NCBI RefSeq assembly: GCF_963676685.1
Contig: NC_092354.1
Location: forward strand, 74,462,001 to 74,526,000
Origin: Mytilus edulis
Lineage: Eukaryota
DNA: 64,000 bases
Reading direction: 5' to 3'
In this document: piece after piece, positions 2,701 through 57,800 of the stretch
Numbering within the stretch: the stretch's first letter is position 1
How the letters are laid out: each line of letters begins with the position of its first letter
The notes under the pieces: generated by a model
What the model was told of the DNA's origin: nothing
The model's database searches: none
Seen by the model: the letters and a program-made list of their open reading frames with translations, nothing else
Program-made: the position numbers and the translations under genes

Positions 2701-2738
2701 TATTTGATAATTGTAATATTCACAATGTTATGTAGTTT

Positions 2739-7667: not shown

Positions 7668-7860
7668 TTAGACCGTTGGTTTTCCCGTTTGAATGGTTTT
7701 ACACTAGTAATTTGGGGGGCCTTTATAGCTTGTTGTTCGGTGTGAGCCAAGGCTTTGTGTTGAAGGCCGTACGTTGACATATAATGGTTTACTTTTATAA
7801 ATTGTTATTTGGATGGACAGTTGTCTCATTGGCACTAATACCACATCTTCCTTTATCTAT
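7668..7860 (+). repeat. Abundant short interspersed repeat ending ...GTCTCATTGGCA.T.ATACCACATCTT
   Basis: Related copies at ~4240-4432, ~13620-13660, ~24870-25012 and, reversed, ~22410-22580. Confidence 0.7.
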
Positions 7861-9361: not shown

Positions 9362-9782
9362 GGGTGACTGGGGTATAGAAATATGGTCACTTGGTCTTCT
9401 CCCGACCGGCAGTAAAACGCTTGCCGAAGTGGGGCGTCCGTTTGGCTGTGCGGGATGTATCAAGTTCGCAGTCACGTCCGGTCAGAAGGGGGACGTTAAA
9501 TCCGATGCCTCGTGTAAAGAGAGTGCCACGCTCTTTGCACGTTGACAACCCTTTCAACAACTCTATGAGGGGTCCGTAGGTGGCCTGTTGCAAGGCAAAA
9601 TTTCTGTCCCTATCCAATATTCCCTCATTTTCCAGTGGCAGTCCAACTTTCCCCGACTATCATCCCAGATGGCCTCCATTGTATCAACCTACCTATTGTA
9701 TTTATTGTGAACTTGTTCTCGTCCTGAATATGCATGAAATATTTGCCACTGGACGTTAAGCAACCAACAATCAATCAATCAA
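9362..9782 (+). mobile_element. 5'-truncated SINE with MetaSINE-like core and (CAAT)n tail
   Basis: Core GGGGACGTTAAATCC...CGTGTAAAGAGAG...TTGCACGTT is shared with the SINE at 1652. Tail GGACGTTAAGCAACCAACAATCAATCAATC. 9-bp TSD TTCTATTAA (9353-9361 and 9783-9791). Confidence 0.8.
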
Positions 9783-22207: not shown

Positions 22208-23027
22208 ACAATTAAACCATTTATTTTTTATCTTAAATCAAAATATGTGTTTTGAATGTAATACACTTTGACCTTAACTCAAAGTTTGTTACCAATATTA
22301 TGTCATTGGTATTTATTCATCCATTACAGTCAACAAACACACGAGAAATTCACATTTATTTTACAGGTACTAGTAATATTAAATTCTGTTTAACAGCAAT
22401 GTTCTTATAAAAAAGAAGATGTGGTATTATTGTCCATGCGATAACTCTCCATAAGACACTAAAATAACACTAAAATTAACAGCTTTAGGTCACTATACGG
22501 CCCTCAAACATGAACAAAGCATGCACCGCATAGTCGGCTATAAAATTAAAAGGCCCCGAAATGACAAATGTAAAACAGAGTTGTTTTTAATTTTATGTAG
22601 GTGTTTTTCCTGTTTTTGTTGGGTGGTCGACAAAAAGTCTTCGAAATCAAAGGACATCTTTATGACGAAGCTGTCATACAAATTTACATATAAATGAATT
22701 TGTATTGTCTAATTATGTGTTTCGTCTTGACAAGTAACGTTGTTAACTTACTCCTTCAATCACATCTTAACGATTAATGGACGAATTATTGATGGTTGTT
22801 TGGATCCGTTTGGCTAGTCAGAATGCGGACGTTAAATTATTTTTTCGGGAAAATGGGTGCTACGATATATGCACGTTGAATAGCATATCAGCAACTCTTT
22901 AAGCTTACTAAGGCGGACTTGACTGTTTCGGGGCTACACTTAGCCCTTCCCGTCTTTGGGTTTTCTTTTCATGGTTATGTATGGATGAAATTGTTTGTCT
23001 TCATATCTTGATATTTTCTTGCAAAAC

Positions 23028-26500: not shown

Positions 26501-27810
26501 TATTTCAAGTAAGGAATATGAAAGTAGTAGTCCATTCGTTTGATGTGTTTGAGCTTTTGATATTGTAATTTGATTATGGGCTTTCCGTTTTGAATTTTCC
26601 TCGGAGTTCAGCATGTTTGTGATTTTTTTTTCTCACATGATTGTTATAATTGAACCATCAGAATTTAATAACATTTTTTATATTGTTCTCAATAAATCAT
26701 AAGACCGTCGTTATTATTCGAAACCATTGCATTACCTCTGCATTTGTCCAACTTTCCTCTTCTGTAGAAAACATATAACATCTATCCCGGAAATGCATCC
26801 AACCATGTCGGCATCCTTCATCCAGTAAAACTGAAGAAAAGGACATGTCTACTTAAGGATGTTCGCTGCTCAGTTTCAAAATAATTAACTTTCTATAAAA
26901 CTAGTATATATTGATAGGGGATTCATTGAGGATCCAAAAAAGCTAAAAAAAAAAAATAGGGGTCAATGTGCTTGTTTTCGAGATATAAGCCATAAAAATG
27001 TTGGCGGGAAAATGTTCTCTCTTGATTTTTCTTAGCTCTATCAATGACCAGTTAAAGTTCTCAAAAACTATTAAGAAATAAATAAAATGTTATAAAACTT
27101 AAAGAAACGGCTTATAATCATACATGTAAAAGATTTATGAAAAGAAAAATAGAGGTTCATGGGCAAAATATTTTAAGGCATTCGAATGGATAAAACCAGA
27201 GGATTTCGAAAATCTGACAAAAATTCCAAAACAAATTTTAGGTAAAATGAATCATAATAGGAGATATTAACAATATATAAGAAAAGTCAAACTGCAGAAT
27301 GTTAGTTATTTATACTTCCAATCCATAAGTCCAAAACTATTGAAAAATTGTGAGATTGAATATAAGGAGAGTATTTAAATATTTGTTTAAATAGACATCG
27401 AATAAATGTTGAATATTATCATGGCGGTTTGATTAACAATTATAGTGAATACGTTCTTCTTATAAAAAAGCTCTACACTCTAAATTTATACCGAGGAGCT
27501 AACATGCAGTCAAAGGTGACATCATAAATCTAAGATCAACATAGAATGAATCTGTGGGAGTTGTTTTGATAACTATAACGCTTATTAACCAAAACTGTCC
27601 AAAAACACTATCAAACTGAAAAAAACGAAATTCCTTAACTTACGTTCTGCAACTACTTCTTTAAAGGAATTTTTACTCTAACGAATCCAATAATACCATT
27701 ATCCACTTATAAGATTTGTGTACAACTTGATAAATTTCTGATGATTTTTACTCACGTGCAGATGAAAAGGAGAAAACACAGAGCCTTAGGAATTTAAATA
27801 ATTGAGACAT
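23578..27810 (-). CDS. Secreted C-type lectin (perlucin-like), QPD/WHD, copy 1
   Basis: Exons 27756-27810 (MSQLFKFLRLCVFSFSSA, signal), possible microexon 27644-27658, 26736-26830 (CRHGWMHFRDRCY...W..A), 24586-24682 (CRVFGGHLAEI) and 23578-23831 (FIGLTD...WEW...W...QPD...EHC...WHDVDC...FICE). GT-AG junctions with compatible phases. Confidence 0.92.
24301..24350 (+). ncRNA. Hammerhead-ribozyme-like motif (probably inactive copy)
   Basis: CTGATTA-GTTT(TGTGT)AGAC-GAAA-CGC(GCGTCTG)GCG-TA has the HHR core order, stems II and III and a GUA triplet. G8>U change in the CUGAUGA box. Stem I is not evident. Confidence 0.55.
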
Positions 27811-29311
27811 GTCCAAATGATCCAGAGATAACCGCAATAGGAATAGGTTCAATATATAGTAGTACAAACAACACAGAACTAGATCACATATACAGAAATA
27901 CCTGACATATTAGATATTTATCAAATCCTTGAGATGAAAAGTCCTTGAACTTGTGCCACTTGGTATTGTCTTCTTATAATATATAATGGCTGAAGATGAA
28001 TTGCATATCAAATTATATGGTTTCAATGTTTATAAACGCATCTAATATGTACTTTACATGGTTCACATTATTCTATTGTTTTAATCCAACTATATGCTGA
28101 CAAACAAGGATTAACGACCATGTTTACGTAAACACCGTATGTCTCTCTACAATTTACAACATGCAAATCGAATCCGTGTACGGGGTACTAGCTCAATGAA
28201 GATTAACTGGTTGACAAATAAGATGTAACTATTAATTTTATAACATATTTAGCTTCTATTTTCTAAATCGTATAACACAAAAGGTTGATTGAAATAGAAA
28301 AATATGTTTTTTCTGCATTTATCCAGGCCATCAAACTAAATGATACATATTAAACACATAGAGACAATACGCAATCTTTTGAACGCGACATATGAACAAT
28401 GTTGAATGCATAGCTATTGAAAAAGGACAGTATACATTTAGATAGAACAAAAAATGAAATGTACAAAGAAAAAAAAAATCATATTTACGCCAGCAATGCA
28501 CTGGAGTCACTTTATTTTGAAATGTAACGGATATTGCTACGGGCAAAGCCTACACCCCTCCCCTAATATAAATAACAAACAAACAAAAAACGGCCACCAT
28601 GTATGCATAATTGGAGTTAAAATCGAGCATGTTTTCAACTGTCTTGGTTTTAATTGATTTAGCATTTAAACAAAATTTCATCCTCACGTACATTCTTTAT
28701 GAATTTACAATGATATAAATTTTTCTGCATCGTGTGTGGTACAATATTTCTTTTTCTTTCGGGACAGTTGAATTTGGGAATATGAAACGGTAGGCTTGTC
28801 TAGCACTTAAAATATTCAAACTGACATATCGTGATATACGTGGAATTCTATATAATGTTGGAATTGGTTTTCTAACGGTAAATAAGTGATATCCATCCGA
28901 ACAATGTATATTTCCTTTTCACTTATCTGTAGCATTGCTAAACGGTGTCATCAGTTTTTAATAGCTCAAATAAGGAAAAAAACAAGAACACTATGATAAT
29001 AAAATTAAGAAAGGAAATAGGGAATGTGTCAAAGCAAAAACAATCTGACCATAGAGCAGACAACAGCCGAAGGCCACCAATGGGTCTGCAATGTAGCGAG
29101 AAACTCCCGCACCCGTAAGCGTCCTTCAGCTGGCACCTTAAAAATATGCATACTAGTACAGTGATAAGAATTGAATGACATTTTAAAACACATTCCACGT
29201 AATACAGTACTTTTTTATTCAAGCATATCAACCATTTAATAATGTAAACAACATCTGTTTGACTACATTGCTAAAAACACAATCCATACTTATATCAAAT
29301 CATATTTATTA

Positions 29312-32300
29312 TCAACCAATGATACTTCCGCCTGAGTTCACTTCTTCCTCCTCACAGATAAAATAATTATGGTCGTCACAATCGGCGTCATGCCATCGAT
29401 AATGATCACGTGCATAAAATAAAACGCAGTGTTCATCGTTTCCATTGTGATCTGGCTGGTGATTACCCCAATCTGTAAAGTTCGGTTTGGTAGCACTTTC
29501 AACCCATTCCCACTCGTCCAATAAAGCTTCGTCAGTCAAACCAATGAAGTAATGGTGTCTTTGATCTGAAAATAAATATGATCGAAAATACGTCAGCATT
29601 TACAAATATAAAACGAGACATTAACACGTCTGTATTATATATGAAAATCACGAAAGCAGTCAAAAATATAGAACTCTAGTTTTCTATGGTGTGTATATAA
29701 TTCTATTATTTTCCTGTTTGTCTATTTATTTTTAGCCATTGATTTATGAGTTTGACTGTCCCCTCTGGTATCTTTTGCCCCTCTTTTACACAAGGTGCAA
29801 ATCTATTTAAAGTTAGGGAACAAGTAACACACTGAACATTTACACTTTTTTATTCTTATTTTTATTCTGCGAAAACAAGTATATATTTTACTTTTTGTCT
29901 ACTCATTTAGTTTTTTTACTATTGATTTTGTTGATTATGTTAAAGTCTTGTTGAATCTGTTTTAAAACATTTTGATATTGAAACATCACTAGATTGGACG
30001 TTCTGAATGGTCCTATATCATATATTAAGACGTTGAAAACATGAAGTGTAATTATGGAAGATAACTTGTGTCTATACATTTTAAACCAGACTTTTAATGG
30101 GCCTGACATTTACACTCGATCTATACCTCTGCTGGTGGACTATCAGTCCCCGAGGGTTTCACCAGCTCTGTAGTCAGTGCTGTGGCATTGCCATGATTTA
30201 ACAAACTTTACTAAATTTGTCCGTTAATTAATTTTGAAATTATCATGAAACTAAGGTTCCAACTCCCTCAGGCAAAGTTGGCTTTTGATGAATTTGGCTA
30301 TTTATACCTATCTATCTTCGGATTTCAAATCTTTGGCTTTGAGCGTTCCTGATAAAGGTAAATCCAGAAAAGCGCTTCGGCGGAAAGAAATTAATAAACG
30401 TGTTGTTTTCAATTTTACACTTTATATTTGATAGCCTAAGGCTGATTTATTGATTGGTTAAGTTTTTAAATTCTAACGTTAAATATTTGATGTGTAATCA
30501 AGAACTCACACATTAGGATCTGCAGAATATGCCGACCAGGTGGAGGTCTCGATTATTAACTTTCACATGACAATTTCAAAACATGTTTTATGAGACAAAC
30601 TTTTAGCGTTAAATCAGGATAATCTACAGGGACACCTTAAATTCTGCCAAGTTTTTTTCTGATAAGAGCACATTTTACATGCTCTATCATATATAAGAAC
30701 GCACATACAATGTAAGAGCCTTTTGAAGGTAAAACCCAATTCTTTCATAGTGGATTGGGAAACAAGTGTTGCAATTTATATCAATCGCTTTCCACTTTGT
30801 TGGTGCCTGTTGAATAACACTCTTTCCAAATGTGTATTAAAATAAAAACCAGTATTTTTATGATGTTGTTCTTGTACAAAAGGTTAATACTTTTAAAGTA
30901 ATACATCTCCGGGGAAAAAAACTAGTATCGCTTGAATCACATTGACGAATAAATTTGTGTGACCAAATTTAATCTAAATATTACTTCCACAAAGACGATT
31001 ATGTCAAGTCGTTGAGTACAGATATAACTTAATATACCATTTCCATTCCTCATTTGTGCTGTATCTTTCAGGAACTTGTTTGTCTCAGCATCCTCAATTT
31101 CCGCTAGATGTCCTCCAAAAACACGGCATCGAAACTGAAAAAGACAGCGATGAATTACAAGGTTCCTGTTATAACAACACAAACAACAACGATCTTTAAA
31201 CAATGCAATTATATTTGTACTAAGTTAAAAAAAGTCAAGGGTAAAATTACAACAACTTTATATACTAGTATACATTGTACACACAGAAGTTAACCATACA
31301 ATATTATTGGATATAAAGTGTATTATTGGACAATAAAGATATCGTGTAGTCTGAGTGCTGATTAGTATTTACTTATCTAAAATGTTGGGTTTTGTTTGTT
31401 TTCTTTTGTTGCTCACCTCAGCATTTGTCCAAGTTTCTTTCTCTGTAGCAAACATGTAACATCTATCCCGAAAGTGCACCCACCCATGTCTGCATACATC
31501 GTCTAATAAAACTAGATAAGACAGAATGTACATTTTCAAATTTCAATTTTAAAGGGAATGTGATTACAGAATTAGTTGTTATTTTTTTAACGTATAGTGG
31601 TATATATTCCAATAACTCATTTCATTGCAAACAGGAGTTTCAAATACACCAGATATATAAATTCAAACGGGTATCGACGGAGTGAATAGTGGTCATCTTG
31701 GAATCCTAAAGCACAAAAAAAGGTAACATGTAAAAGGAGAGGGCTCATAATCAGAGAGGACATCAGATTTCCTCTGGGTTTTTTTAAAAGGGGATCTCAA
31801 TGTTAAGTAAACAAGTTGAAGTGAAATAGTTTGCAGAGTGGTGTTGCTCTTTTTGACGTTTTTCTTGTTTGGTCATGTGAAATATCTGTATAGATCATAA
31901 AGATTATTGGTCATATTTTTGTTATATTATAATATGTCTGCCCATATTGATAAACCTCATAGCAGGGTAGCTACGGTTCCCTCAGTTGTTACAACACATC
32001 TTATGCACTTAATGTGTATCTACAGGCGGACGTGGATGTGTACTTATGTTCACGGGGAATGTTAATTTTCTGGTAGTAAGACCGGTCACGGCCAGGCAAG
32101 ACAACAGGGTAGGCAAATTCGCCATATTAAATCCGTACCGATACAGTGTGTTAAATGTCTAACTTTACACCATAACCCATGTTGGTGCTCCTACAAAAGG
32201 AGGAAGATACAGGACATACATACATCCCACCCTGAATGATGGGTGTTTCCGCTGTGTCGGGCCTTACAACAAAATGAACAACACTGTTTAAGTTAAAAAA

Positions 32301-32749: not shown

Positions 32750-33200
32750 AATACCTGACCTATTAAGAAGTTATGTAGTAAAATATCCAACAGCATGAAA
32801 GTTACTTGTACTATACTTAGGTAAATACCTCCTGACCTAATGAGAAGTTATGAAGGTATAATGTCTATAAACATGAGAGGTACCTGTTCTACTTTGTGAT
32901 GTATTATACCTGACTTAATGAGAAGTTATGAAGGTATAGTACATATGAACATGAAAGGTACTTGTACTATACATGGGTGAAGATGCCAGACCTAATGAGA
33001 AGTTATGACAGTATCGTATCTATGAACATGAGATGTACTTGTACTGCACTGTTGTGCATTAAATCTGACCAAATGAGAAGTTATGAAGGTATAGTACATA
33101 TGAACATGAAAGGTACTTGTACTATACATGGGTAAAGATGCCAGACCTAATGAGAAGTTATGACAGTATCGTATCTATCAACATGAAAGGTACTTGTACT
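32750..33200. repeat. ~77/78-bp tandem repeat x6 with dimeric higher-order structure, upstream of lectin 2
   Basis: GAAGTTATG recurs at ~32767, 32844, 32922, 32999, 33077 and 33154. Units 3/5 and units 4/6 are each near-identical pairs. Confidence 0.9.
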
Positions 33201-36200
33201 ACACCACGTTAATGAATGATTTATTAATGTTCGTAATAATCTGAAAGACTATTGTAGTTTTCTGTAATACATTAAAATCGAGTTGATCAAATAGCGCTAT
33301 AATAAAATTGAGATAACTCATATCCAAGTCATATGTTTTCATATGTTGCTCGTTGTTGCTGTCTGTGCGTTTGTTGTTGGTCTTTGTCAATCGATTGCGA
33401 CATTTTTGATATCGCCTAAATCCTGATTGTCTTTGATTTCACTTAAAAAAAAACTGGCCGTGACAACCACGTGTATAAACCTACTGAATTGTAATCCTGG
33501 TGAATTGGCATGTGTTGCAAACATTATTATGATGTGCTCATTGAACTATATTTTCTAATGTATGGTTAGTTATTATCATAATGTCAAATTTATCATTGTA
33601 AAACGATGACGAATTGTTTAACAAAGACATAATGTTTTTCCTCAACTTCAACTGGACTTCAGAAAACATTAACCTCAGGTTAATCGACAGCGGATCATCT
33701 CATGAAAGACAGTCATATTGATAAACAGTTATGTGGACAGCCATCTGCGTGACTTCCTTTACTGATATTTTTCATTCTTCTTTTTATTTGGCGGGGCTCT
33801 CATTTTCAGATTGTTGAAATGTTCTTCAGTTTAAATCTACAAATCTTAAGTGTACTTTGGGAGATGCAACAGTATTCGTATAATAACAAATTCATTTCAA
33901 CTGTAAAAGATTGACACAAACGCATTTTCAAATACATGTACATGTATGAACTATAGAACTCAAACTTAGAACTTCGAACTTAGTTCTTAGAAGTATCCGC
34001 GTCTGTTTAATTTCACACGTCAATGTTTCCGATCTTTTAAAAAGAGAAGAGAAGGAAACGGTTCATACTCATGAGCTAGCAATGATATTTCTCTAAATGA
34101 AAGGATAAATCATAATCAAACTCGTGACAATATTACAATACAAGTACAAGTAGTGAAAAACATCACGAAGTCACAATTGTTCTTCACTATTTACACTTTT
34201 GGTATTTAGATGTATTTTGCCTCCGAATGACCTTATATCACCTCCAAATAACCCATTGACGTCAAGCAACAATCACTTTTTAGTTATGACGTCAAATGTT
34301 TTGAATTATGATGTCAAAGTTCACGGGAATCTGTGTGATTATATGTAATAGCGAAAAAATTTGCATACAAGTGTAAATACGTCTATATTACAGAGAGTTG
34401 ACCATTTGTGGATTCTTATAAATTCTATATAACTTTTTAAAATTAATTCTGACATACTTTTGATTTTTAACCCTGTATGCTAACATTGCCCATGTGAAAT
34501 TTTAAAATTGTTGGTATAAACATTGAATGACAAAAATGTGTGACGTATAAATATTCTGACGTCAGTCACACGAAGCAATGAGTGTGTTTTTAATTTGATA
34601 GATGCTTTTGTGTTCTGTTAAATTGTTTCTTTTAAAATTGTAACACGATAATGACTGCTGTACCCATATTTTACTTTTTTTATCATGTCTGTTTAGTTCA
34701 CGCATCATTGTAAATATCACAGAATTTGACGAGACTGTTGTACATTTGAAAATGCCTGTACCAAGTCCGGAATATGACAGTTCTTGTCCATTCGTTTTTG
34801 ATGTGTGTTGTCGTTTGAGTTTGCCATGTGATTAGGGACTTTTCGATTCGATTTTCCTCTGAGTTCAGTGTTTTTGTGATTTTACTTTTTACAGGGAATT
34901 AACTACCAATCAAGGTCTGAACATAGCGAATCAGAAACAAATTGACATGAAGTTTCAAAACCAGAGTAACCTGAATAGAAACACCAAACACTGTGACCGT
35001 AGCAGTGATCGATAATTCAACACATATTTTCTCATTTAAATGCATATTTCTTTGCGAACCAATTCTGTGTTGACGTGATTTCACGTGCAATGGAACATTT
35101 GGAAGCGGGATAAACTTTGAAATCATGCATTTTATAACACAGTTATTTCTGTATTCCATTATTAAGCTTTGTACGAGAATTCCCAAAATCATATGATAGG
35201 TTTGGTAATAAAATCCTATTCGACAAATCTCACATCCTAGGGTGAAATCCCATACGATTTCCATACCACAACAATATGTTGGAGATTGTGACAGAAATTT
35301 AACAACAATAAAACGTCTATCTTTTTGACACATTCCACATTTCCATGATTCTTAATTCTATCAGGCTATTTTAAAAATTATGAAATCAATGCTCGTATGA
35401 ATTTCTTTATTCGTCTCTATGACAACTTCCATCAAAAATGCTAGTTCACTAAATAAATACTGAACAATGGTGTTGTGTTTGCAAGTATTGCATAGAAATA
35501 AAGCTAACATAGGGTCTAGCATATTTCAAATTGACAGCATATTTTTTTTCCAAATAGCAAGTACTGTTTTTGTATTTTTCATGTTTTTATCAGAATACAT
35601 TTGACAACTCTGGTACCTGTCCAAATAAAACTGAATAATAAAACTGTTATACGGACTTTGTTTCATTAGGCCTAATTCATAGCTTGATTTGCTATTTGAT
35701 ATAACAAGATTGAAAAGAGAAAATCATTTATTCAAAATCATAAAATGCAAAAATACATTTTGCGAAACATTTGACATAGAATTTCATCATCAATATTACA
35801 TTATTAATGTAATGTATGCAAAATGAAATCAACTAAAATCATATCAATTGAATAAATAACAACACTTCAAATATGAGAATAAAAGTCTGACCCACTAAAA
35901 AAAATACACAAATCTGCTTTAAAAAAAAATGAAATTAAGGGAGGCATGCGATTGTTTTTTTTAAGTTTACCACGCATTTAATTAACATTTTAATTCAATG
36001 AAGCACACATATGGAACACACATGTGAACAAGTCCCTCCAAGACCATAGAGCTATCATAAATTTACTATGTAATTAACTGTTTTAATAGGTCCCTGTTCA
36101 GTTCAGTCTAAGTAATAAATACTACAGAATAATTCTTCCCTGTTGTATCACATTATTGTATTCATTTATTATATAAACAATTAAAACTGAATATGTGTTA

Positions 36201-36565: not shown

Positions 36566-36885
36566 TCAATCAATAGGAATTAATTTGGGAAAGCTTTCAC
36601 AATTTTCTAAAATTTCTGTAATCAAATGTGGATTTCTACCAGATCTTTCCAAAGCATGGAGTAGCTCTCTGATTGTTGAGTTATCTTCTCTGTTTCTCCA
36701 GCAATATAACATTTGTCTACTGACTTCCCGGAGTACTTTCGGATTGTCGTATTCTATTTGTTCCAGGCGTTCGATTTCAATACCGAGTTCTAAGCCAAGA
36801 ACCATCCACTCCTTACCAATTCGAAGACACAATTTGTCAAGCATCTCATCACTTGGCGACAGATTCAAAATCTTATCAGGCAAAT
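36566..36885 (-). CDS. Terminal death-domain exon of the intact ROCO gene
   Basis: PSDEMLDKLCLRIGKEWMVLGLELGIEIERLEQIEYDNP...QMLYCWR...TIRELLHALERSGR. Confidence 0.9.
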
Positions 36886-39800
36886 CTAAAACAAATATTT
36901 GTAGACTATTAAATAGTATAAGCTAGTAGGGGCAAATCTTATAAAACTATGTAAAGAAATGCTCTGTTATAATATGTTTCTTGTGTTTGAGCTGTTGATA
37001 TTTCGATTTGATTCGGGACTTTCGTTTAGAATTATTCTCGGAATTAAGTATTTGTGTTATTATATTTTTCTGGTTTGTTAATATTTTAATTAGGACACTA
37101 CAATATTTTCTTTCCGGAAACATGTTTTCTAGTGTATTACTCTTAGGTGGATAGATTTCACACTTAGACTGAACAGTGTCTTGATATAAAAGTTGTATGA
37201 TATCATTATGAACAGATATATCATGTTAGGGAGGGGTATTTGTGAAAAATACCAGTCGAGAGAATGTTAAATTTCACGAGCCGTAAGGCGAGGGAAATTC
37301 ATTCTCAAGACTGGTATTTTTCGCAAATACCCCTCAATAACATGATATATCTGTTTAATTACACCGAATGTTAATGTACTAAAACGCATTGATGATCGTG
37401 ACGTTACAAGCGTCCAGTCGGATAGAGTATTTTTTGGCAAATACCACGGCAGAGAGGGTAAAAAAGGCATATCCTTTTAGCAAATACCCCGGCGGCGTTA
37501 AAAATGAACGATATTCATTTGATAATAATAAATTGGTGAAAAATACACTGGCTATTAACCAATCAAAACCCCGGATTCTTACATAAGGTGTAATTATAAT
37601 TAAAATAATTGGTTCTTTGGGTCGGTTAAAAAATGATATATCAGCTTACTAGTTTTGATAACGTAGGAAAATATCACTGTAACAAACATGACAAAAGAAA
37701 AACAAAAACAAAAACAAAGAAAAGAAAAATGGGTTCTATAAATCATATGTGAGAAACTTTAAACACATGGTTGTTTCAGTATCTCAGGGAAAGTTTAAAA
37801 TATCACTTAATGGAGAGAGCAATATTTTTCTATACTGAATATGATTTAAAATATATCATACCGGTCTCCACTTCTTCCTGTCTCAGAATCTACAATAAAT
37901 ACGCAGATTTGAGTCGTCTTCACAAATGGATTTGTAATAAATGAGGTAAAAAAAATTGATATCAGTTTCTAATCGGTTCGTAAGTTTGTCCATAAAAGTA
38001 TTTGTTATTGCTGTTTTTCTTTTCGTTATTTTCTTTTTTTTGCTATTTTTTACTTAAAATTGTATCTTGTAACTACTTTTTTCCGCTCACGTTATATTAA
38101 AAAATTAAATTATATATATATAAAGATATAAAACACAAGCTGTCCATGAAAATGCATACACACACTGTTTTAATGTGTTGTTTTATACAGTCAACGTCAA
38201 TATATCATAACACGATTTTTTTGTTGCTTGATCATGTTGATATGGGCCATGTTATCCATTTAATAAATTAACAACTCGTTTAAGGAAAGTTAAACAAAGT
38301 TGGATTTAAAAGGGTCTCATTTGGTAATAAAGCATCCCACTTGGTTCAGTACTTTTTGCATTCTTGGTTTTTACATAATTTCGTGATGAAGATTAACCAA
38401 GAAAACTATTTCTCCCACATACGAATATATAATTGTTACTTTATGTTTTAGATAGTAAGTGATAGTATAGTTGTTGGAGAATAACGATTTTTTTTGGCAT
38501 ATAACCAATCACACTTATTGTCGATTTTATTGATAAAACATCCGTTATTGTGAAACCTGGAACAACTCAAGTTTCACCGATAAATCCAAATACGTACCTG
38601 ACACATGGCATGTCTGTTGATTTCAGCAGCTTCCATGGCCTTGACGAAATCTTTACATGATTTGTTCTGCTCTCTGCAGATACGAAGGCTATAAAATTTG
38701 TGCATAGGAATCGAATCAACATCAATGGCATCAAGTTTAGTAATCGAGACCCCAAGGTTGAATGCCAAGCTGCGTACTTCTTCTTTTGTTAAGCTATTAC
38801 AAATGCGAAGAAGCTGCGAGTCGTTGAGTAACATCGACAGAACGGCATATAGTATACCTAAATGAACATTAGAAATACAAAATATGATTTGTTTATTGAA
38901 TGTCTAAATTTTAAGAGAATACCATATGGCTTTTTCGATATCCCATCAGCATTAACCCGATACACCAAGAATCCCAAGATGTCTGCTTAAGGAATCATAT
39001 TGACTGAGTTTTGAAACAGAATGTAATATTGAAACAACCATATCATATATACCTTATCATTTACTTCACTAAGTAGATGTGTCTTTTTTTGTTGTGGCAT
39101 ACATATTAAATGCTTGAGTTTGCAATTGCAATTAGTCACTGATATCGATATCATCACGGATAGCTGATACAGTACTACTGCCGGTGATTCTTTCGAACAT
39201 ACAATTTATCTGTATTTACTACTTTCTTTATTCTAAAAAGTATTGTACTACAATAGTTTTTGAAATATTTTCCTCAATTAAAACCAGGTACTATCTGATT
39301 TTGTATACGAGTGTCGTCCTAACAAGACTCGTTAGTGTCGTTAAAATACACAAAATTGAAAGTTAAAATCACATATGAAATTGTATAGCATTAAATGAAA
39401 AACGTTTCAAACCGTTGTTTTCAAAACAAATGATGACCACAGGACTTTAATTATATGTTCATACGCGACTTGGTTCAGGTTGCACACCAATAAATTCCTT
39501 TAAAATTGTGTTTAATTCGTTGACATATAATGATTCTTTGAAATAACTCACTCGTTACCTCTATCACACAAAAATTGTATATTTTTGTCATTTTTAAATT
39601 TGCTGTCATATCACAAATAAACAACTAAAATATCCTTGTATCATTTAAATGAACTTTTCGATGGGTTGATATTTTCTACGTTTGTATGACTAACACCTTT
39701 ACGAATTTACCTCGGAGTCATGTTTTTATATTGGACATTTTTGCATATATATCCCTATGCAAACTAAATTATGGCCCAATGCCTTCCTTATAATGCGTAC

Positions 39801-42800
39801 ATCATATCACTAGACTTAAACTGTAAATATATTATATTTCATGAAATTTTCCCCTGTCACATATTTTTTTAGATTTTAAAGTAATTTCTTGCCTCAGCTT
39901 ACGTTCTATCCATTTGTTCTTTCTGGTAAGCGCGACAAAACATTAAAAAATTGACACCCTTCAACAAATGTCAGCCGGGTAAAGCATAATAGAAACTCGT
40001 TTCAAGACAATACATTTGTTTCATTTGAATTGAACATTACCTTGACATGAATCTGTACACTGTAAGATAGTCTGAAAGTATACAATGATACCACTTTGTT
40101 TAATTAATGCAAATTGCAAATGACAAATAATTCAAAACTTGTCATTTGTAACTATTATGTTTGTATGTTTTGTGTTACATTTAACATTGTGACTAAGCGG
40201 GAGGTTTGGCTAACCACAAATCAGGTCATACCGGCAAACTGCTAGTGTTATCTTATAGGTCATTTCTGGTATTATACCACCAAATCATGGTACGTCAAAT
40301 CTGGTTGTTTACGAAAATAGGTCGAAAAAAATATTGCCTTGAATTTTACAGTTGTTGGTAAATAAACCTACATTTTATTGCAGTAAAACAGTTCTTTGTA
40401 ATAAACGTATGTCCTGGGTCTTCAAAGCCCCATTTTTTTACTAAACCTTTGTACCCCGATTAAATAAAAGGAGACATTTGATTGGTTAACTTCCAGAGAT
40501 GGTTATTTTTTTTTATATGCAACGACATGTTATTTGAATTTTTTTCTATAGTATTGGACAGGATAAAAAATTACCCATGCCAAGTATATCTTTATTTGAA
40601 ACAAAGATAAATTCCGCACATTTTTTGGAAAATGCAAATTCAACAATGACTAATAGGGGAAGATAAATTGTGGCATTACACCTAATATGGGAAGCTGTAC
40701 ATGCACCTTTGACCTGGTGAGTAATCTCATGTGTTAAAATATCTTGCTATTTAAGTGAAATATTACAAAAAATGAAATATTCTGAGTGGGTTGACTCTCC
40801 AAAACACATTTTATGAGAACATTTTCTTGAAATAGGACTCTACCATGAATATCACAAAATGAACTTTATTTTTGGTTTTGTAGAAGAAAACATTTTTTTT
40901 AAATTGTCTTGTAATTTTTGCCCAAAAATACATATATAAAAAAACCTAGAAGAAAAGCTTCCAAATGCCTTACGGCTCGTGAAATTTAACATTCTCTCGA
41001 CTGGTATTTTTCGCAAATACCCCTCAATAACATGATATATCTGTTTAATTACACCGAATGTTAATGTACTAAAACGCATTGATGATCGTGACGTTACAAG
41101 CGTCCAGTCGGATAGAGTATTTTTTGGCAAATACCACGGCAGAGAGGGTAAAAAAGGCATATCCTTTTAGCAAATACCCCGGCGGCGTTAAAAATGAACG
41201 ATATTCATTTGATAATAATAAATTGGTGAAAAATACACTGGCTATTAACCAATCAAAACCCCGGATTCTTACATAAGGTGTAATTATAATTAAAATAATT
41301 GGTTCTTTGGGTCGGTTAAAAAATGATATATCAGCTTACTAGTTTTGATAACGTAGGAAAATATCACTGTAACAAACATGACAAAAGAAAAACAAAAACA
41401 AAAACAAAGAAAAGAAAAATGGGTTCTATAAATCATATGTGAGAAACTTTAAACACATGGTTGTTTCAGTATCTCAGGGAAAGTTTAAAATATCACTTAA
41501 TGGAGAGAGCAATATTTTTCTATACTGAATATGATTTAAAATATATCATACCGGTCTCCACTTCTTCCTGTCTCAGAATCTACAATAAATACGCAGATTT
41601 GAGTCGTCTTCACAAATGGATTTGTAATAAATGAGGTAAAAAAAATTGATATCAGTTTCTAATCGGTTCGTAAGTTTGTCCATAAAAGTATTTGTTATTG
41701 CTGTTTTTCTTTTCGTTATTTTCTTTTTTTTGCTATTTTTTACTTAAAATTGTATCTTGTAACTACTTTTTTCCGCTCACGTTATATTAAAAAATTAAAT
41801 TATATATATATAAAGATATAAAACACAAGCTGTCCATGAAAATGCATACACACACTGTTTTAATGTGTTGTTTTATACAGTCAACGTCAATATATCATAA
41901 CACGATTTTTTTGTTGCTTGATCATGTTGATATGGGCCATGTTATCCATTTAATAAATTAACAACTCGTTTAAGGAAAGTTAAACAAAGTTGGATTTAAA
42001 AGGGTCTCATTTGGTAATAAAGCATCCCACTTGGTTCAGTACTTTTTGCATTCTTGGTTTTTACATAATTTCGTGATGAAGATTAACCAAGAAAACTATT
42101 TCTCCCACATACGAATATATAATTGTTACTTTATGTTTTAGATAGTAAGTGATAGTATAGTTGTTGGAGAATAACGATTTTTTTTGGCATATAACCAATC
42201 ACACTTATTGTCGATTTTATTGATAAAACATCCGTTATTGTGAAACCTGGAACAACTCAAGTTTCACCGATAAATCCAAATACGTACCTGACACATGGCA
42301 TGTCTGTTGATTTCAGCAGCTTCCATGGCCTTGACGAAATCTTTACATGATTTGTTCTGCTCTCTGCAGATACGAAGGCTATAAAATTTGTGCATAGGAA
42401 TCGAATCAACATCAATGGCATCAAGTTTAGTAATCGAGACCCCAAGGTTGAATGCCAAGCTGCGTACTTCTTCTTTTGTTAAGCTATTACAAATGCGAAG
42501 AAGCTGCGAGTCGTTGAGTAACATCGACAGAACGGCATATAGTATACCTAAATGAACATTAGAAATACAAAATATGATTTGTTTATTGAATGTCTAAATT
42601 TTAAGAGAATACCATATGGCTTTTTCGATATCCCATCAGCATTAACCCGATACACCAAGAATCCCAAGATGTCTGCTTAAGGAATCATATTGACTGAGTT
42701 TTGAAACAGAATGTAATATTGAAACAACCATATCATATATACCTTATCATTTACTTCACTAAGTAGATGTGTCTTTTTTTGTTGTGGCATACATATTAAA

Positions 42801-45800
42801 TGCTTGAGTTTGCAATTGCAATTAGTCACTGATATCGATATCATCACGGATAGCTGATACAGTACTACTGCCGGTGATTCTTTCGAACATACAATTTATC
42901 TGTATTTACTACTTTCTTTATTCTAAAAAGTATTGTACTACAATAGTTTTTGAAATATTTTCCTCAATTAAAACCAGGTACTATCTGATTTTGTATACGA
43001 GTGTCGTCCTAACAAGACTCGTTAGTGTCGTTAAAATACACAAAATTGAAAGTTAAAATCACATATGAAATTGTATAGCATTAAATGAAAAACGTTTCAA
43101 ACCGTTGTTTTCAAAACAAATGATGACCACAGGACTTTAATTATATGTTCATACGCGACTTGGTTCAGGTTGCACACCAATAAATTCCTTTAAAATTGTG
43201 TTTAATTCGTTGACATATAATGATTCTTTGAAATAACTCACTCGTTACCTCTATCACACAAAAATTGTATATTTTTGTCATTTTTAAATTTGCTGTCATA
43301 TCACAAATAAACAACTAAAATATCCTTGTATCATTTAAATGAACTTTTCGATGGGTTGATATTTTCTACGTTTGTATGACTAACACCTTTACGAATTTAC
43401 CTCGGAGTCATGTTTTTATATTGGACATTTTTGCATATATATCCCTATGCAAACTAAATTATGGCCCAATGCCTTCCTTATAATGCGTACATCATATCAC
43501 TAGACTTAAACTGTAAATATATTATATTTCATGAAATTTTCCCCTGTCACATATTTTTTTAGATTTTAAAGTAATTTCTTGCCTCAGCTTACGTTCTATC
43601 CATTTGTTCTTTCTGGTAAGCGCGACAAAACATTAAAAAATTGACACCCTTCAACAAATGTCAGCCGGGTAAAGCATAATAGAAACTCGTTTCAAGACAA
43701 TACATTTGTTTCATTTGAATTGAACATTACCTTGACATGAATCTGTACACTGTAAGATAGTCTGAAAGTATACAATGATACCACTTTGTTTAATTAATGC
43801 AAATTGCAAATGACAAATAATTCAAAACTTGTCATTTGTAACTATTATGTTTGTATGTTTTGTGTTACATTTAACATTGTGACTAAGCGGGAGGTTTGGC
43901 TAACCACAAATCAGGTCATACCGGCAAACTGCTAGTGTTATCTTATAGGTCATTTCTGGTATTATACCACCAAATCATGGTACGTCAAATCTGGTTGTTT
44001 ACGAAAATAGGTCGAAAAAAATATTGCCTTGAATTTTACAGTTGTTGGTAAATAAACCTACATTTTATTGCAGTAAAACAGTTCTTTGTAATAAACGTAT
44101 GTCCTGGGTCTTCAAAGCCCCATTTTTTTACTAAACCTTTGTACCCCGATTAAATAAAAGGAGACATTTGATTGGTTAACTTCCAGAGATGGTTATTTTT
44201 TTTTATATGCAACGACATATTATTTGAATTTTTTTCTATAGTATTGGACAGGATAAAAAATTACCCATGCCAAGTATATCTTTATTTGAAACAAAGATAA
44301 ATTCCGCACATTTTTTGGAAAATGCAAATTCAACAATGACTAATAGGGGAAGATAAATTGTGGCATTACACCTAATATGGGAAGCTGTACATGCACCTTT
44401 GACCTGGTGAGTAATCTCATGTGTTAAAATATCTTGCTATTTAAGTGAAATATTACAAAAAATGAAATATTCTGAGTGGGTTGACTCTCCAAAACACATT
44501 TTATGAGAACATTTTCTTGAAATAGGACTCTACCATGAATATCACAAAATGAACTTTATTTTTGGTTTTGTAGAAGAAAACATTTTTTTTAAATTGTCTT
44601 GTAATTTTTGCCCAAAAATACATATATAAAAAAACCTAGAAGAAAAGCTTCCAAATGCAATTAAATTAAAAAATAGACTGACAAACTTTTATATCTGATA
44701 GCTTTATACAGCAAGAAAATACAAGAAAGTTTTTGAACTTGAAAAACTTTGTGCCCCTATGTTTATTATTTATCCTGAATGGTAATCTAACAACCATATT
44801 TGTATCATTTTATATCTTTTTGACCTATATATGGAACAGAGCAAACAACATGTAATATATGCATAGCACATGTAAACTTTTTTTTTCTATTAAATAATCT
44901 ATAGATATTTCTATNNNNNNNNNNNNNNNNNNNNNNNNNNNNNNNNNNNNNNNNNNNNNNNNNNNNNNNNNNNNNNNNNNNNNNNNNNNNNNNNNNNNNN
45001 NNNNNNNNNNNNNNNNNNNNNNNNNNNNNNNNNNNNNNNNNNNNNNNNGATCGACAAAAATATTCCTTTTAATTTGACAGTTGTATGTAATTAATCCTAC
45101 ATTTAATTGCAGTAAAACATTTTCTGTCTCATAATCATATGTCTTGGTTAATTCAAAGGACCATTATTTTTTTTTTGAAAAGTTCAAATTTAACAAAGAC
45201 TAATAGGGGAAAAGCAATGGCTGTATTACACCTTATGTGTGTATTGCATTTTAGTGTTTCTGTTGTGCCTTGTTCTCCTCTGATAGTTGATGTGTGTCCC
45301 TCAGTTTTAGTTGGTAACCCAGATTTTTTTTCTTAATCGATTGATGAATTTCGAACAGCAGTATACTACTGTTCACACATCGATATCAATATACTAGACT
45401 TTTATGTGACTATCATAAATGGACACATTATACAACATTTTTCTTCAAATAAACATTCGAGACATAAAGATAAAAATAACAGTAATAGCAAACCTGAATT
45501 TGCATTTTGAATACAACATAACTTTTCTTAAACAAGTGAACTGTCTGAAAAAATTTGGTATATTAGCCACTTTTCTATAATGTCTGTGACAGTACCAATA
45601 TTTTGATTCCATAGACTTCTTGCAATTAGAGCTAGTGGGAAATTATTTGCATCAGGCATTTTTGTGGTCTAGGTGTTCCTCCATTGATATATGAAACAGG
45701 AGATACTACGAGAGCAATCAAACACACTATTGACTGATCAAAGAATTAGAATATCGAAAAATATTCAACTCGAGACCGAACATCATTGACAATTTACGAA

Positions 45801-51800: not shown

Positions 51801-54800
51801 TGTTCAATCCATAGATAAATGAAACATATTTTTGGCTGTTATGAATATTTTTTAATAACTATTTACCATTTGTTTGTTCTAGAAGTTTCTGTGTCTTCAT
51901 ATCAAACAACAATTTTCCAAAGTACACGTCTATTCCATCAGTACTCTGTCTCTCTATAGGGATGTCTTTACCGATTAAATTCGACACAAGCGTTGTTTTT
52001 CCAGCTTCATAAGCTCCGACTACTAAAATTCGACTATCAAACGATGGTACTAAATCATTAGATAAAAGTTGAAAAAATTCAGCTCTGTCAGCTACAATGA
52101 AATATAAACAAAATGAAGTAACAAAACACTACTCGAAGAAAAATTAATCATCATAACCGCTGAATAGTTAACATTATGTAGGCTGTTATTTGTTGCTAAT
52201 AAAAAAGTGTTCTTATTTACTCTCATAGTTAAAGCTATGATTGTTTTGTTTTGTTTATAAGATATTGTCCAGTTTATCTTCGGCTTTAATAATAATATCA
52301 TATATTTTTTTTTAAATTAGAAGTAATTTATTTATCTCTTAATTACATCTTCTCCTTAACAGAAAACAACTATACTTGATATATTATTGTGCAACATTTA
52401 CATTTTAATGAGCAATGTTATAATTAATTTGTGTTTCAACTGTTCCAATTGTCCAACAAGGACTAGATGAAACACTCGCTTTGTATACTTACTTACTAGC
52501 ATGTCATCTAACAAGACTCTGATAACACTCTATATATGTGTAATTGTCAAAACGTAATCATTATAAATGCTTAAATAATTGATGTTTTTTTTAAATGAAA
52601 GTATTTGATTATCGTCTTGGTAGCGATGACACATAGAGCAAATATTTGAATATTTATTTTGAATATTTATACACGCTGTGGAATTCAGAGTGAAGCAACA
52701 TATTTATAATATTTTTAAAGAAAACCATCCCATGTTCATTTCTCATATACCCCCTCCTTTCCATGATGCATGTGTTCGATAATATTTTTTTTAACCTCAC
52801 CTCAATGTGTAATATTTCAATGGTTTTTAAACATCGGTGAACTACAAATGACTCTTATTTTGTCTATATTCTTTTAGTTTGAATCATATTTATAAATGTG
52901 ATATAAATCAATATAGTCTACCGTGTCAACTTCTGGTTGGGTATTAAACGTACAAAACTTGTTAGCGCTCTTGGAGTATTTTTTATATAATTCCGTATTT
53001 AATTCACTTGAACTTGACTATTGCATGCACTGTTGCAATTGACACGTTTGCTTTTTCGGTCAAACTCGACTTTTTTTTAAAACGGTTATTGTTTTTTTGT
53101 GCTGTTGAGACGCGAAACTCGTTTTTTTAAAGCTAGATTAGACCGTTGGTATTCATGTTTGAAGTATTTTAGTATTTAAGTACCATTTATAGCTTACTGT
53201 TCGATGTGAGCCAATGATTATCATTAATTTTATTTGTCAGAGTCGGAAACGAGACTTTCCGTTAATCTCTATTGTAAGTAATCAATTTACTACTTTCCTT
53301 CATATTGACGAGTTTGTACATCTTATTTTGCAGATGATTTTAAGATTCATTTGAATTTACCTGTATCTGTTATTATTTCTGCAGAAATGCAAACATAGAG
53401 AAAGTTCATCCTTGAAAAATTCAACTCTTAAAAGAAATATTGAAGCGCTTAGCCTTTTTTATTTAATTTATCATGTTCGGCTTATCATTTTGACTTTTAA
53501 CAGTTTTCCGCTTTATAGCAAAGTCGCTGCAAATTCTGAAATCGTCTATCTTTTTAACGTTCATATTACATTAATTGTTCCTACCAAATTATCAGAGCTC
53601 AATGAGAAAATCAAAAACTTCAATAATCAACTTTACAATCCTCTCTACTATGTAGATAGTATACACTTTTGTTCACACGATAATTTCTTCCGTCACGAAC
53701 AGGTGCTTCCTCATCTTATGCAAGACTGCTTCCTCCTGTCACGAGATCAAGGTATACAGGGAGCAAGTAATATTAGACACATCCTCTTTCCCGGTTCATC
53801 ACTAAGATCTGTGAAAAATCACAATAGGGGCACAACACAAAAACTAAAAGTCTTAATAAGGACAAGTATGTAGGAAGTGAGGCAATGGGAAATCACTAGA
53901 ACTATAGGTATAATAAGATAGGGAATACAAATAATAACAGTTGGTCAGTTCAGGCACAGCTGGGATAGGATCAGAGGAATAATACATATGTTAACAATCG
54001 TTCCATTCAAGGAAGAATGGTCGTCATTCCAGTGAACCAGTTTATACAGAAGAACACAAGAGACATGACTAAAATCAACGCATTAATGATCTTGCATCCA
54101 CTGTTGCATCAGCAGTTGCTGGTGCGTTCAGGGATTTTGTGTAAACTTATAACTGAAATGTTATACCCCAATAAAATTGAAATCTATAGTTATCACCATG
54201 CCACAATAAGTCGTTTTGTGAATGAAATGCAGGAAGAAATTCATATTAAAGACCTACCGAGATCAGACGGTTTCCTTTTGACCTCAGGGAAAACCAAGCC
54301 TTGTAAAGTTTGGTCAAAAGGAAACCGTTTGCAAACAGTATTATCATAAACAAGTTGTTGCCAAACAGGAGACTTCAAACAAGAATTGGTCGAAATCAAC
54401 TCATTGCTACTGGTTATCGTGCGAGAAGACGATTTCGGAGATTTTTGTCTACAAACAGACTTGAAGTGGCCAATGGTGCAGAGCTCGCCAACGTCGGAAA
54501 TTAGCATCTTGGAGGAATATCGATTGGTGCAATGAAAGTCGGTTTATCTTCCTTGGCCTGATCGTAGACCGGATTTGAACCATATCGAGCACATATAGAA
54601 CATAATTGGGTGTAAAATGTCCGAAAGGAACCCCCTGTTTAAAATCTTCATGGAATAAACAATGCCCTTCATCTGAAATAGTTGTGGGTAACTCAGCAAC
54701 AAATTCGTCGGTTGATGGCAGGTGTGATAATAAGTGTAGAGGTGGTTATCCGTGTAAATGACAGCTACATCAAAATAGTGATTCTTTGGCCTATAACGAT

Positions 54801-57800
54801 CAACCATGATGTGGACAATTATCTTAAGATTTATTTTGAAGTGTCTGACATTCCATTGTTTGATTACAGTAAACGATGTAAAATTATTATTTTTGTACAA
54901 AAATCTTTTTATTTTTTTTTTATCAAAATAGTGGTGAATTCAAATATTTGTTGTCATTCATTTTTTGATTTGATGTAATACCAATGTTATCATTAACAAT
55001 GTTTCAATATTAGTATACAAATACATTCTATCCAAGAAAGGAGGCTGATTTTCCGAGGTTAAAAAATCAAGATGTTGCAAAACTTTTTTTCCATTGGTAT
55101 ATATATAATTTTGTACGATGTTATACAACATCTTTTTTGGGGGGAATTTCAACAATGTTTTCAGAAAAACAAAAGGATTGTGAATAACAATCTTTAGATT
55201 TTTTACCTAGCAATATTTAAACAGAATTGTTTATGCTGTCTAAGTATGTCAGGTCTTTGCATTTTCTTTTGTTTTGGGGCTTTTGTCATGTGTTTTAAAG
55301 TGTGAAAAAATAAACATTTCCATTTGGAATGTAAATGGTTTGTTTAGAAGGTTAAATAGTGGTCTTAGCATTTCAAAATTCGATGATGAAAAATTTAAAA
55401 AATATTATAACTCGGGTAAAGATGAAAACCGTACCTGTTTCATCGTCATCCCAAGATGGCAGATGAAAAATTATGTATTGTTTGTTAAAGTGTTTCTATA
55501 TAAAAAAAATTACAAAATATACATTGGTACGATGTAAATTTATTAAAGTTTCACACGGAAATCACAAATTACTACGGTAACCGTGAAATATGCAGGAAAC
55601 AGGAAAATCGATTTGAAAAAAAATCGCTAAGATGACCTTAAATCATTATAAAAATATTTTCAAGATGACCGTATCATATAACAAGTATGACTGTGGTTGG
55701 TAAAAAGATTACCATAATTTGTAAAAGATGACCATTATTTGTAAAGGATAACTGTTATTTATAAAGGATAACATTACTGTAATTTATAAAAGATGACAGT
55801 AACTTTTAAAGGATGACCGTCAATTCTAAGAAATATCCGTATTTGTATTCATAGCCTTTTTTTTAGTTCGTCTCAGTATGGGCTCGGTTAACTATTTGCC
55901 GTATTTTGACAATGATAGTAAATTGCATATTTCTCGTAGGAAATATTTATTTATTTATAACGAGGTTAACATTTTTATATTTGGCAATAGTTCATAAAGT
56001 TCATTGTTTAATTCCGTTTGACACCCTTCTGCGACATAACCGTCAGAGGCGGATTTTGGAATAGAGGCCTGGTCCCCTTTTTCTTGGAAAAAAATGGTTG
56101 ATTATATAGGAATCACTGAAGCATGACCGGAGTGGCCCCTCTTATTCAGTCAGTGAGCCCCCACCTATGAAAATAAGTGGATCTGTCACTGACTTTCAAA
56201 TTTGAAGAACATCTTTTGAATGATATAGTATGTTCCCAAAATAAATATATTTGGCTTATAACCTTATCCTAACATCATGTTAAGCTTTGTTACTTCAACT
56301 CTGAAATGTACGAACCGATAGGTAGAATGGCCAGTGTTTTCATCCAAAATTTTCTTTAATAAAGAACATTTACAATGGTAGTTGATACGATATCATATCA
56401 ATTGGTGTACACGCATTAGCATTTTTAAGAAGGTGTATTTATTATCTGACATTAAAAAGAATCCCATAAATTAAAAAAATATTTCGTCTTGAAGTTGAAT
56501 GCTACATATGGTGAACTATGTATTTGAAGCACGTCGTATTGTCTTCTACCTTTAAAATAATAATCTCTAACAAATACGTTTTATTCCAACACGATTAATT
56601 ATTTTAAACAAAAAAAGGTTATACAAATACAGATGTTTCTTAGAATTGAAGGTCATCTTTTAAAAGTTACTGTCACCCTTTATAAATTACGGTCATCCTT
56701 TACAAATTAAGATCATTTTTTAACCAATTAAAGTAACCCTTTTTATGAATTGCTTATCCTGTTACGGTCATCTCGATTATGATTTACGGTCATCTTAGCG
56801 ATTTTTTTTCAAATCCAATTTCCTGTTTCATACACATTTATCGGTAGTGGTTTGTGATTTCCGTGTTAATCTTTATAAATTTACATCGTACCAATATATG
56901 CTTTGTAAAGAAAACGATATAGAAACCCTTTAACAGACGATACAGATACTGACCTTCGTTTTCATCCGCCATCTTGGGATGACCATGAATCTAGTTACGG
57001 TCATCAGCTTTACCCAGTGATTATACATGTAAGACTGTCAGAACCTCATGCTTCTTCTAAAGAAATTTTGGCATTAGATGAATACAAATGTCATGTCAAT
57101 TGTAGATCTGATTTAAATAAAAGTAGGGATGGATTGGCAGTATGAGTTAGAAAAGAAATGTTGACGAGAATTAAATTGATTGATAAATTTGTTAATGAGA
57201 TCATGTGGTGGAAGCTTGAAAAACATTATTTCGGTTTGACAAGGGATTATTTATTTTTATATATATATATATATATATTTCACCGGCAAACTTATTTCAT
57301 ACTGTTCGTACCAATTGTGACAAACACATTTTTGACAAATTATACAATGATGGAGGCAAATATGGTATTTCAGGGAAAGTAATGCTATTAAGAGGACCTA
57401 AATGCGCATGCAAAATGTGATAAGTTAGATTTTATTACAAATGAGTGACGATACTTTTGATAATTTTCAACCTGTCAATTATGAAGCTGATTGTATTCAT
57501 AAATTGAAAAATACGGAAATTCCACAAGTACTAACAATTATGAGAAATCAGTAATCGAGTCACAGCTAGGAAGTTAAAAATGGAGATTCTAAAAGGAAAA
57601 TAACTATTTACAACCATTGTTTCCATTGTTGACTATTGCATCTGCAGTGCATCATTGCTATCCAATATTATTAATTTTACAGTTGGACAATACTGCCCTA
57701 CACTGTCTGATCATAGTTCAATATCAGTCCAGATTTTATCTAAGTCAGTACAAACTAAAAGACCATATTCACAGAAAAATAACATGAAAAGAATTAACAT

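Follow-up and report, generated by a model that had tools for sequence, protein, structure and literature searches.

A probable palindrome-templated duplication of three exons in a Mytilus edulis Roc-COR death-domain gene, and the probable frameshift that it carries

By the symmetric-module rule, exon-bordered domains multiply through intronic duplication, while copies that break the reading frame survive only by way of alternative splicing or decay. Among rearrangements, the duplication-normal-inverted duplication type (DUP-NML-INV/DUP) places an inverted proximal piece between direct distal copies, leaves a single-copy stretch between the two sources, and makes one switch within opposite-oriented repeats (pairs of long interspersed nuclear elements, LINE, or of Alu, with megabase spacers) and the other by microhomology. 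Small inverted triplications arise by replication error, contain short inverted copies joined over a few bases, and are built as DUP/INV/DUP segments of ~150 bp each (PMC13334657). Inverted intronic repeats that drive back-splicing are described as complementary arms in flanking introns with a competing local hairpin (PMC11263572). Here, we describe a minus-strand gene encoding a Roc-COR protein with two death domains (DD; Roc-COR-DD-DD) in a 64,000-nt stretch of Mytilus edulis (GCF_963676685.1, NC_092354.1, 74,462,001-74,526,000), hereafter the window, to which all coordinates refer. Three middle exons of this gene occur twice. With moderate confidence we read the locus as a real, very recent intragenic duplication that would have arisen in one event at an intronic palindrome, would shift the reading frame by default, and would make this a loss-of-function or hypomorphic allele.

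Self-comparison returned a single near-perfect long repeat within the window: 37309-40968 equals 40999-44658 over 3,660 bp, with one mismatch (40529 G / 44219 A) that lies deep within an intron, at a period of 3,690 to which the range of Tandem Repeats Finder does not extend. The first-pass annotation had described a 3,690-bp duplication of exactly three exons. The exons hold, both in size (31, 260 and 28 nt) and in phase; the size of the duplication does not, 3,690 being the period, composed of a 3,660-bp unit and a 30-bp insert. That the event is very recent agrees with one mismatch in 3,660 bp, with the proviso that near-identity alone is no basis for dating. The unit, its exons, the exon downstream of it in the transcript and the nearby gap are as follows.

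40999-44658, plus strand, direct-repeat unit, 5′ copy in the transcript, carrying the mismatch at 44219
43731-43761, minus strand, 31-nt microexon, 5′ copy, phase 0-1, AG/GT ends
42288-42547, minus strand, 260-nt exon of the first death domain (DD1), 5′ copy, phase 1-0, AG/GT ends, death-domain fold
41552-41579, minus strand, 28-nt microexon, 5′ copy, phase 0-1, AG/GT ends
37309-40968, plus strand, direct-repeat unit of 3,660 bp, 3′ copy in the transcript
40041-40071, minus strand, 31-nt microexon, 3′ copy, AG/GT ends, inclusion shifts the frame
38598-38857, minus strand, 260-nt DD1 exon, 3′ copy, identical to the 5′ copy, AG/GT ends
37862-37889, minus strand, 28-nt microexon, 3′ copy, AG/GT ends
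36566-36885, minus strand, terminal coding exon with the second death domain (DD2; Pfam Death), phase-1 start, single copy
44915-45048, no strand, assembly gap of 134 N in the intron between the COR exon and the microexon, 256 bp away from the unit

The junction between the two copies is not a plain head-to-tail join, a point absent from the first-pass annotation. Its elements are the following.

37211-37355, no strand, imperfect palindrome of 145 bp with the left breakpoint inside it (hairpin fold, shuffle test)
37244-37289, minus strand, junction template, comprising the left arm and apex of the palindrome, with an inverted copy at 40967-41012 (46/46 nt)
40969-40998, no strand, junction insert of 30 bp, the exact reverse complement of 37258-37287
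40967-41045, no strand, new inverted arm of 79 nt, 96% complementary to 37211-37289, the pair bracketing all three 3′-copy exons

The palindrome consists of 56-nt arms, 91% complementary, around a 33-nt spacer whose apex (37280-37289) forms a small stem-loop; it folds at -58.2 kcal/mol (z -17.8) and none of 200 shuffles was as stable. The duplicated unit begins within its right arm. To the left of the insert, the unit end and the template share a 2-nt microhomology at 40967-40968, which does not extend to 3 and could match by chance; to the right, a 14-nt homology at 40999-41012 is common to both palindrome arms, and the base past it tracks the right arm, not the left. In terms of copy number, 37258-37287 is duplicated in inverted orientation, 37290-37308 is single, and 37309-40968 is duplicated directly. 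Within the window, the 15-mers of the insert are present at the insert and its template only, and a pattern search for the junction gave two sites, compared with none in 100 shuffles. An origin of the insert from a dispersed element was considered and set aside, no other copy being found within the window. Immediately to the right of the palindrome, ~240 bp (37357-37595, copy at 41047-41285) are bounded by a 9-nt inverted pair; palindrome and adjacent sequence together resemble a non-autonomous mobile element, of which the window holds no other full copy.

Such a junction could be written by two template switches. A replicating end at 40968 would jump 3.7 kb back to the palindrome apex via the 2-nt microhomology, copy 46 nt of the left arm backwards, and switch to the right arm across the 14-nt arm homology, from where the unit would be re-copied, in the manner of fork stalling and template switching or microhomology-mediated break-induced replication (FoSTeS/MMBIR). 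The product would be a DUP-NML-INV/DUP in miniature. It is possible, at a rather low probability, that the same real duplication came about by other chemistry. A cruciform could have been extruded and cut to leave a hairpin-capped end, which would open beside the apex and undergo end joining with a break in the sister at 40968; alternatively, a plain tandem duplication could have come first, with the hairpin loop of one copy flipping afterwards. Hairpin opening yields palindromic junction bases in V(D)J and in hAT excision. The edge of the apical stem-loop, 37289, is also the exact starting point of the inverted segment, and the 2-nt microhomology suits end joining equally. The cruciform route, however, requires a second break, and the loop-flip version requires two events within about one substitution's time. 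The final product is identical letter for letter to that of template switching, and sequence cannot separate the two.

As an exon module, the unit measures 319 nt and runs from phase 0 to phase 1; it is not frame-preserving, even though its sub-modules of 260 + 28 nt (1-1) and 31 + 260 nt (0-0) are symmetric. Because its first exon opens in phase 0 and its last one closes in phase 1, inclusion of all six exons shifts the frame. With all six exons included, translation stops after ...SSHL, giving 772 aa, at 230 nt upstream of the last junction, as the first-pass annotation had also worked out. One exon set, on the other hand, encodes 848 aa. Skipping 40071-40041 gives a protein of 944 aa (+96 codons) with three DDs, again in agreement with that annotation, which had nevertheless taken it for the only such route; skipping 41579-41552 instead works too (945 aa, +97 codons, three DDs). 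In total, 13 of the 64 exon subsets keep the frame, and three DDs occur in 2 of these. The splice context is common to both copies: identical sequence extends for 897 nt ahead of the repeated acceptor and for 553 nt past the repeated donor; since the contexts are identical, there is no local signal for the required skip.

Ordinary exon recognition would include all six exons, with a frameshift and an early stop. What the gene mainly yields would then be an mRNA lost to decay or a Roc-COR-DD1 protein of 772 aa that lacks the terminal DD2, and in-frame mRNAs with two or three DDs would be expected as minor skipped forms only. The default outcome would be the loss of a death domain, not a gain. 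In a model of independent microexon skipping, the three-DD mRNA makes up 1.9%, 8.6%, 14.6% and 21.1% at skipping of 1, 5, 10 and 25%, respectively; high rates appear unlikely, because microexon skips break the ancestral frame. The proposal of the first-pass annotation that splicing sets the number of DDs finds no support past this frame arithmetic, the module being asymmetric and the splice contexts identical. The allele, probably either damaging or neutral, is most likely a loss-of-function or hypomorphic structural variant in a gene family of fast turnover, in which a neighbouring paralogue has decayed (5 stops). DEATH-domain genes are among the functions enriched in dispensable mussel genes (PMC7653742).

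Several considerations weigh against this reading. All of the evidence is assembled sequence, the 134-N gap lies 256 bp from the unit in a repeat-rich intron, and the near-identity of the copies may be partly assembler-made, through a collapsed consensus or polishing. If local heterozygosity were ten-fold lower than the species mean, the probability of at most one difference between two haplotypes would be P = 0.013. The single-set frame is fully open over its 848 aa, and the gene so far shows no decay. Decay of the frameshifted mRNA would probably enrich three-DD forms among the survivors. The 50-55-nt rule for such decay comes from mammals, and mollusc rules may differ. Finally, a predicted distal RNA stem, considered below, could make the single-set mRNA the chief product.

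Palindromes are trouble spots for sequencing and amplification, and chimeric molecules can arise at hairpins. It is therefore natural to ask whether the repeat is an assembly or library artefact, with the unit written twice because a chimeric molecule had changed strand at the hairpin, or because two haplotypes of differing loop orientation had been joined end to end and polished to identity. We judge this unlikely. It would accommodate a single mismatch across 3,660 bp and the absence of the duplicated exon from all database proteins compared, and the assembly of mussel genomes is difficult and readily yields duplicated haplotype blocks (PMC7653742). Against it, the junction contains no N, two switches are needed, the flanks of the gap do not overlap (longest common word 10-11 nt), and an allele in the database departs from both copies at 5 residues encoded by the DD1 and 28-nt exons, over which the copies agree completely. 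With homologies of 2 and 14 nt, far below overlap and k-mer lengths, the junction should exist in sequenced molecules, and the fact that it is templated argues against simple misassembly. At the mean heterozygosity of 1.73% given for the species in the same study (PMC7653742), ~63 differences would be expected between two haplotypes, whereas the copies differ at 1 site. Near-identity by itself neither dates the event nor excludes merged haplotypes, because an assembler may create identity. The first-pass annotation had warned of an artefact on account of the near-identity and the gap at 44915; the templated junction weakens this caveat without removing it, and the gap stands outside the unit, not at the junction. 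We infer that the duplication is very probably real and present in the DNA of the animal.

Outside the duplicated unit, the gene comprises the following exons upstream in the transcript.

52493-52502, minus strand, candidate start-codon exon of 10 nt, predicted, in agreement with the predicted start of P0001
51867-52091, minus strand, first Roc exon with the P-loop, 225 nt, colinear with P0001
50485-50838, minus strand, second Roc exon, 354 nt, colinear with P0001
47714-47820, minus strand, third Roc exon, 107 nt, colinear with P0001
45997-47208, minus strand, COR exon, 1,212 nt, Pfam COR-A above cut-off

P0001 is a predicted protein of M. galloprovincialis, also of 848 aa, from which the single-set model differs at 16 of 848 residues, without gaps (98% identity). 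An extra small exon near 51776 was dropped, the model being colinear with P0001 without it. A hidden exon inside the 134-N gap is not required either: since the single-set model aligns gaplessly with P0001, no exon is concealed there. To the right of the gap, 45051-45239 is an older, ~80% identical and partly deleted copy of a repeat that lies inside the unit (44012-44379).

The identification of the gene as Roc-COR-DD-DD, already made by the first-pass annotation, is upheld by Pfam for Roc, COR-A and DD2, all above their cut-offs, and by fold for DD1. Roc (PF08477) scored 39.6 bits (cut-off 27) on P0001, used as a proxy for the window model, in whose own Roc domain the P-loop is unbroken; COR (PF16095) follows directly after Roc and scored 38.6 bits (cut-off 35.3) on the window exon 47205-45997. 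All 19 matches of the COR-exon search were named Mytilus proteins. In DAPK1, LRRK and MFHAS1, a kinase, leucine-rich repeat (LRR) or ankyrin region stands before Roc. Pfam found no kinase, LRR or ankyrin region before Roc on P0001, where the start exon is predicted and upstream exons are possible; lacking these parts, the model as it stands is not DAPK1, LRRK or MFHAS1. Distant Mytilus relatives (P0013-P0015) carry ankyrin repeats ahead of Roc-COR-DD-DD in a DAPK-like layout, with no kinase family listed. From its domains, the protein may act in immune or cell-death signalling. An Aplysia survey mentions ROCO domains in TIR proteins (PMC9334734), and a literature search that was thin on subscription journals, and hence a weak negative, found no publication on the Mytilus Roc-COR-DD-DD family.

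The duplicated domain is the less conventional of the two. DD2 scores 47.9 bits against Pfam Death (cut-off 22.6), and its best sequence matches in PDB are RAIDD and FADD. DD1 has no Pfam Death match and scores only 17.4 bits for the death effector domain (DED), under the DED cut-off of 35.9. Its structure, predicted from a 26-row alignment with a mean predicted local distance difference test (pLDDT) value of 84, has as top match in a structural aligner the DD of RAIDD (2of5_A, Z 13.6, root-mean-square deviation 1.2, 82 residues aligned), and all of the top 9 rows are death domains; in Foldseek, death domains also rank first, none of them at E<=0.001. On the strength of this model, DD1 is a predicted death-domain fold despite failing the Pfam profile. 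The two domains are homologous, with an HHalign probability of 96% over trimmed alignment columns, first codon aligned to first codon, and both of their exons (42288-42547 and 36566-36885) start in phase 1, 96 codons apart. The pair is thus probably the product of an old phase-1 module duplication; looking like such an older event, DD1 and DD2 would indicate that the exon-module route to extra DDs has been used once before.

A repeated DD1 or three DDs was found in none of 30 stored homologous proteins, distinct entries pooled from match sets of 19, 13, 7 and 14 that are mostly automatic gene models from few individuals, were gathered by insensitive word-based searches and were counted with profiles derived largely from these same homologues. 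Two DDs would accordingly be the ancestral state and, as sampled, the sole DD number, and the statement of the first-pass annotation that a single exon set restores the ancestral two-DD protein is borne out by the 848-aa model. Both DD1 copies share three residues, at positions 3, 38 and 63 of the exon translation, that occur in 0/23, 0/25 and 0/24 aligned relatives, respectively. These private residues may reflect drift or diversification older than the duplication.

Let us turn to the RNA stem. Under a self-buffering scenario, the inverted insert would pair with the left arm of the palindrome in the pre-mRNA and loop out the exons of the 3′ copy; a splice from 41552 to 36885 would restore the 848-aa protein with two DDs and release a 319-nt circular RNA as a by-product. 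We consider this improbable as a description of the locus, even if the predicted geometry is suggestive. The 79-nt arms bracket exactly the 3′ exon set, at 507 and 326 nt from the splice sites to be joined, and in the minimum-energy fold of the 3,951-nt minus-strand RNA, 80 nt are paired across the copy. When the insert is present, distal pairing is favoured over separate, local folding by 39 kcal/mol, a margin that shrinks by ~4 under a loop penalty; when the insert is left out and only the right-arm copy stays, zero bases pair distally. Competition between flanking-intron and within-intron pairing has been described for inverted Alus, but the same source reports that back-splicing is usually less efficient than linear splicing (PMC11263572). 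Moreover, these are equilibrium folds only, and an Alu pair is longer than this stem. At -84.8 kcal/mol, the local hairpin can form once transcribed, and does form at a span limit of 300 nt (58 pairs); the upstream splice sites may already be committed by the time the second arm is transcribed, 3.7 kb further on.

If the stem did work, the duplication could be said to have been born silenced: its junction piece would pair with its own template and hide the frame-breaking copy as raw material, with three-DD and circular leaks, until a usable module arises. This extension of the scenario, also a matter of modelled folds, seems to us a shade less probable again. Silencing of this kind would hold for any intragenic duplication so made, because the geometry follows from the mechanism. 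The literature search, a weak negative here as above, found no duplication looped out by its own junction.

Very unlikely, lastly, is the view put forward in the first-pass annotation that an expansion of the DD number has been caught under way, with regulated microexon skipping yielding a functional Roc-COR-DD-DD-DD protein as a substantial product: there are two in-frame routes to three DDs, the alignment and phases of DD1 and DD2 suggest that an earlier module duplication of this type gave the family one of its DDs, and decay would presumably favour in-frame forms, but the default product loses DD2, no local signal separates the copies, either microexon skip frameshifts the ancestral gene and should hence stay rare, none of the 30 homologues has three DDs, and the private residues in both DD1 copies are a possible sign of a drifting domain.

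The neighbourhood of the gene contains an older relative that serves as an outgroup for the ancestral layout.

476-10677, minus strand, older paralogue in which the 31/260/28-nt exon set occurs once, together with DD2

The Roc-COR exons of this paralogue contain 5 stops and its P-loop lysine is changed, while the DD1, 28-nt and DD2 exons are open; their spliced translation from the first Met equals P0024 (192 aa) exactly. It could be a pseudogene or encode a product with the twin DDs only. Between both Roc-COR-DD genes, two tandem C-type lectin genes occupy 23581-31500 on the minus strand, and their last exons (29315-29599 and 23581-23856) match Pfam Lectin_C above cut-off. More inverted repeats or short hairpins lie at 55403-57025, 54267-54328, 18926-18984 and 22540-22596, and short tandem arrays at 2735-2991 (83 bp), 32751-33204 (77-78), 62026-62163 (30) and 20077-20238 (25). 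A search of Rfam gave 0 matches across the window.

As most likely read, the locus adds one more structural allele, made by a known repair mechanism, to a genome known for such alleles. Its value is that of a clean base-level case in which a palindrome starts the duplication of an exon module, in an invertebrate death-domain gene, alongside evidence that the two death domains of the gene go back to an earlier event of this type, one that stayed in phase. Should the RNA stem prove to work, the case would also link the origin of a duplication to its tolerance.

Taken together, the comparison with described systems places the locus as follows. Members of the Mytilus Roc-COR-DD-DD family (P0001-P0011, P0020-P0022) likewise have Roc and COR in tandem, two death-fold domains and microexon linkers, and the window allele differs in repeating its three middle exons. 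Relative to symmetric-module exon duplications, the mussel unit is asymmetric (0 to 1), comprises three exons and has no evident mutually exclusive arrangement. With the inverted intronic repeats of PMC11263572 it shares the flanking complementary arms and the competing hairpin; here, the arm arose in the duplication event and encloses precisely those exons that were duplicated, and its effect is a prediction. Unlike the small inverted triplications of PMC13334657, to which it is akin in its short inverted copy and few-base junction, the mussel case has no triplication and its direct part is 3,660 bp. It could equally be classified as a tandem duplication carrying a short insertion of templated sequence, a class that also appears in PMC6902434. 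The likeness to DUP-NML-INV/DUP extends to the inverted piece between direct copies, the single-copy stretch between sources, and the pairing of one switch in opposite-oriented repeats with another by microhomology; the difference is one of scale, with a 30-bp inverted piece, a single-copy stretch of ~20 bp, and a 14-nt homology in a 145-bp palindrome in place of LINE/Alu pairs and megabase spacers. The mechanism is already known, and the mussel junction would be a very small example of it.

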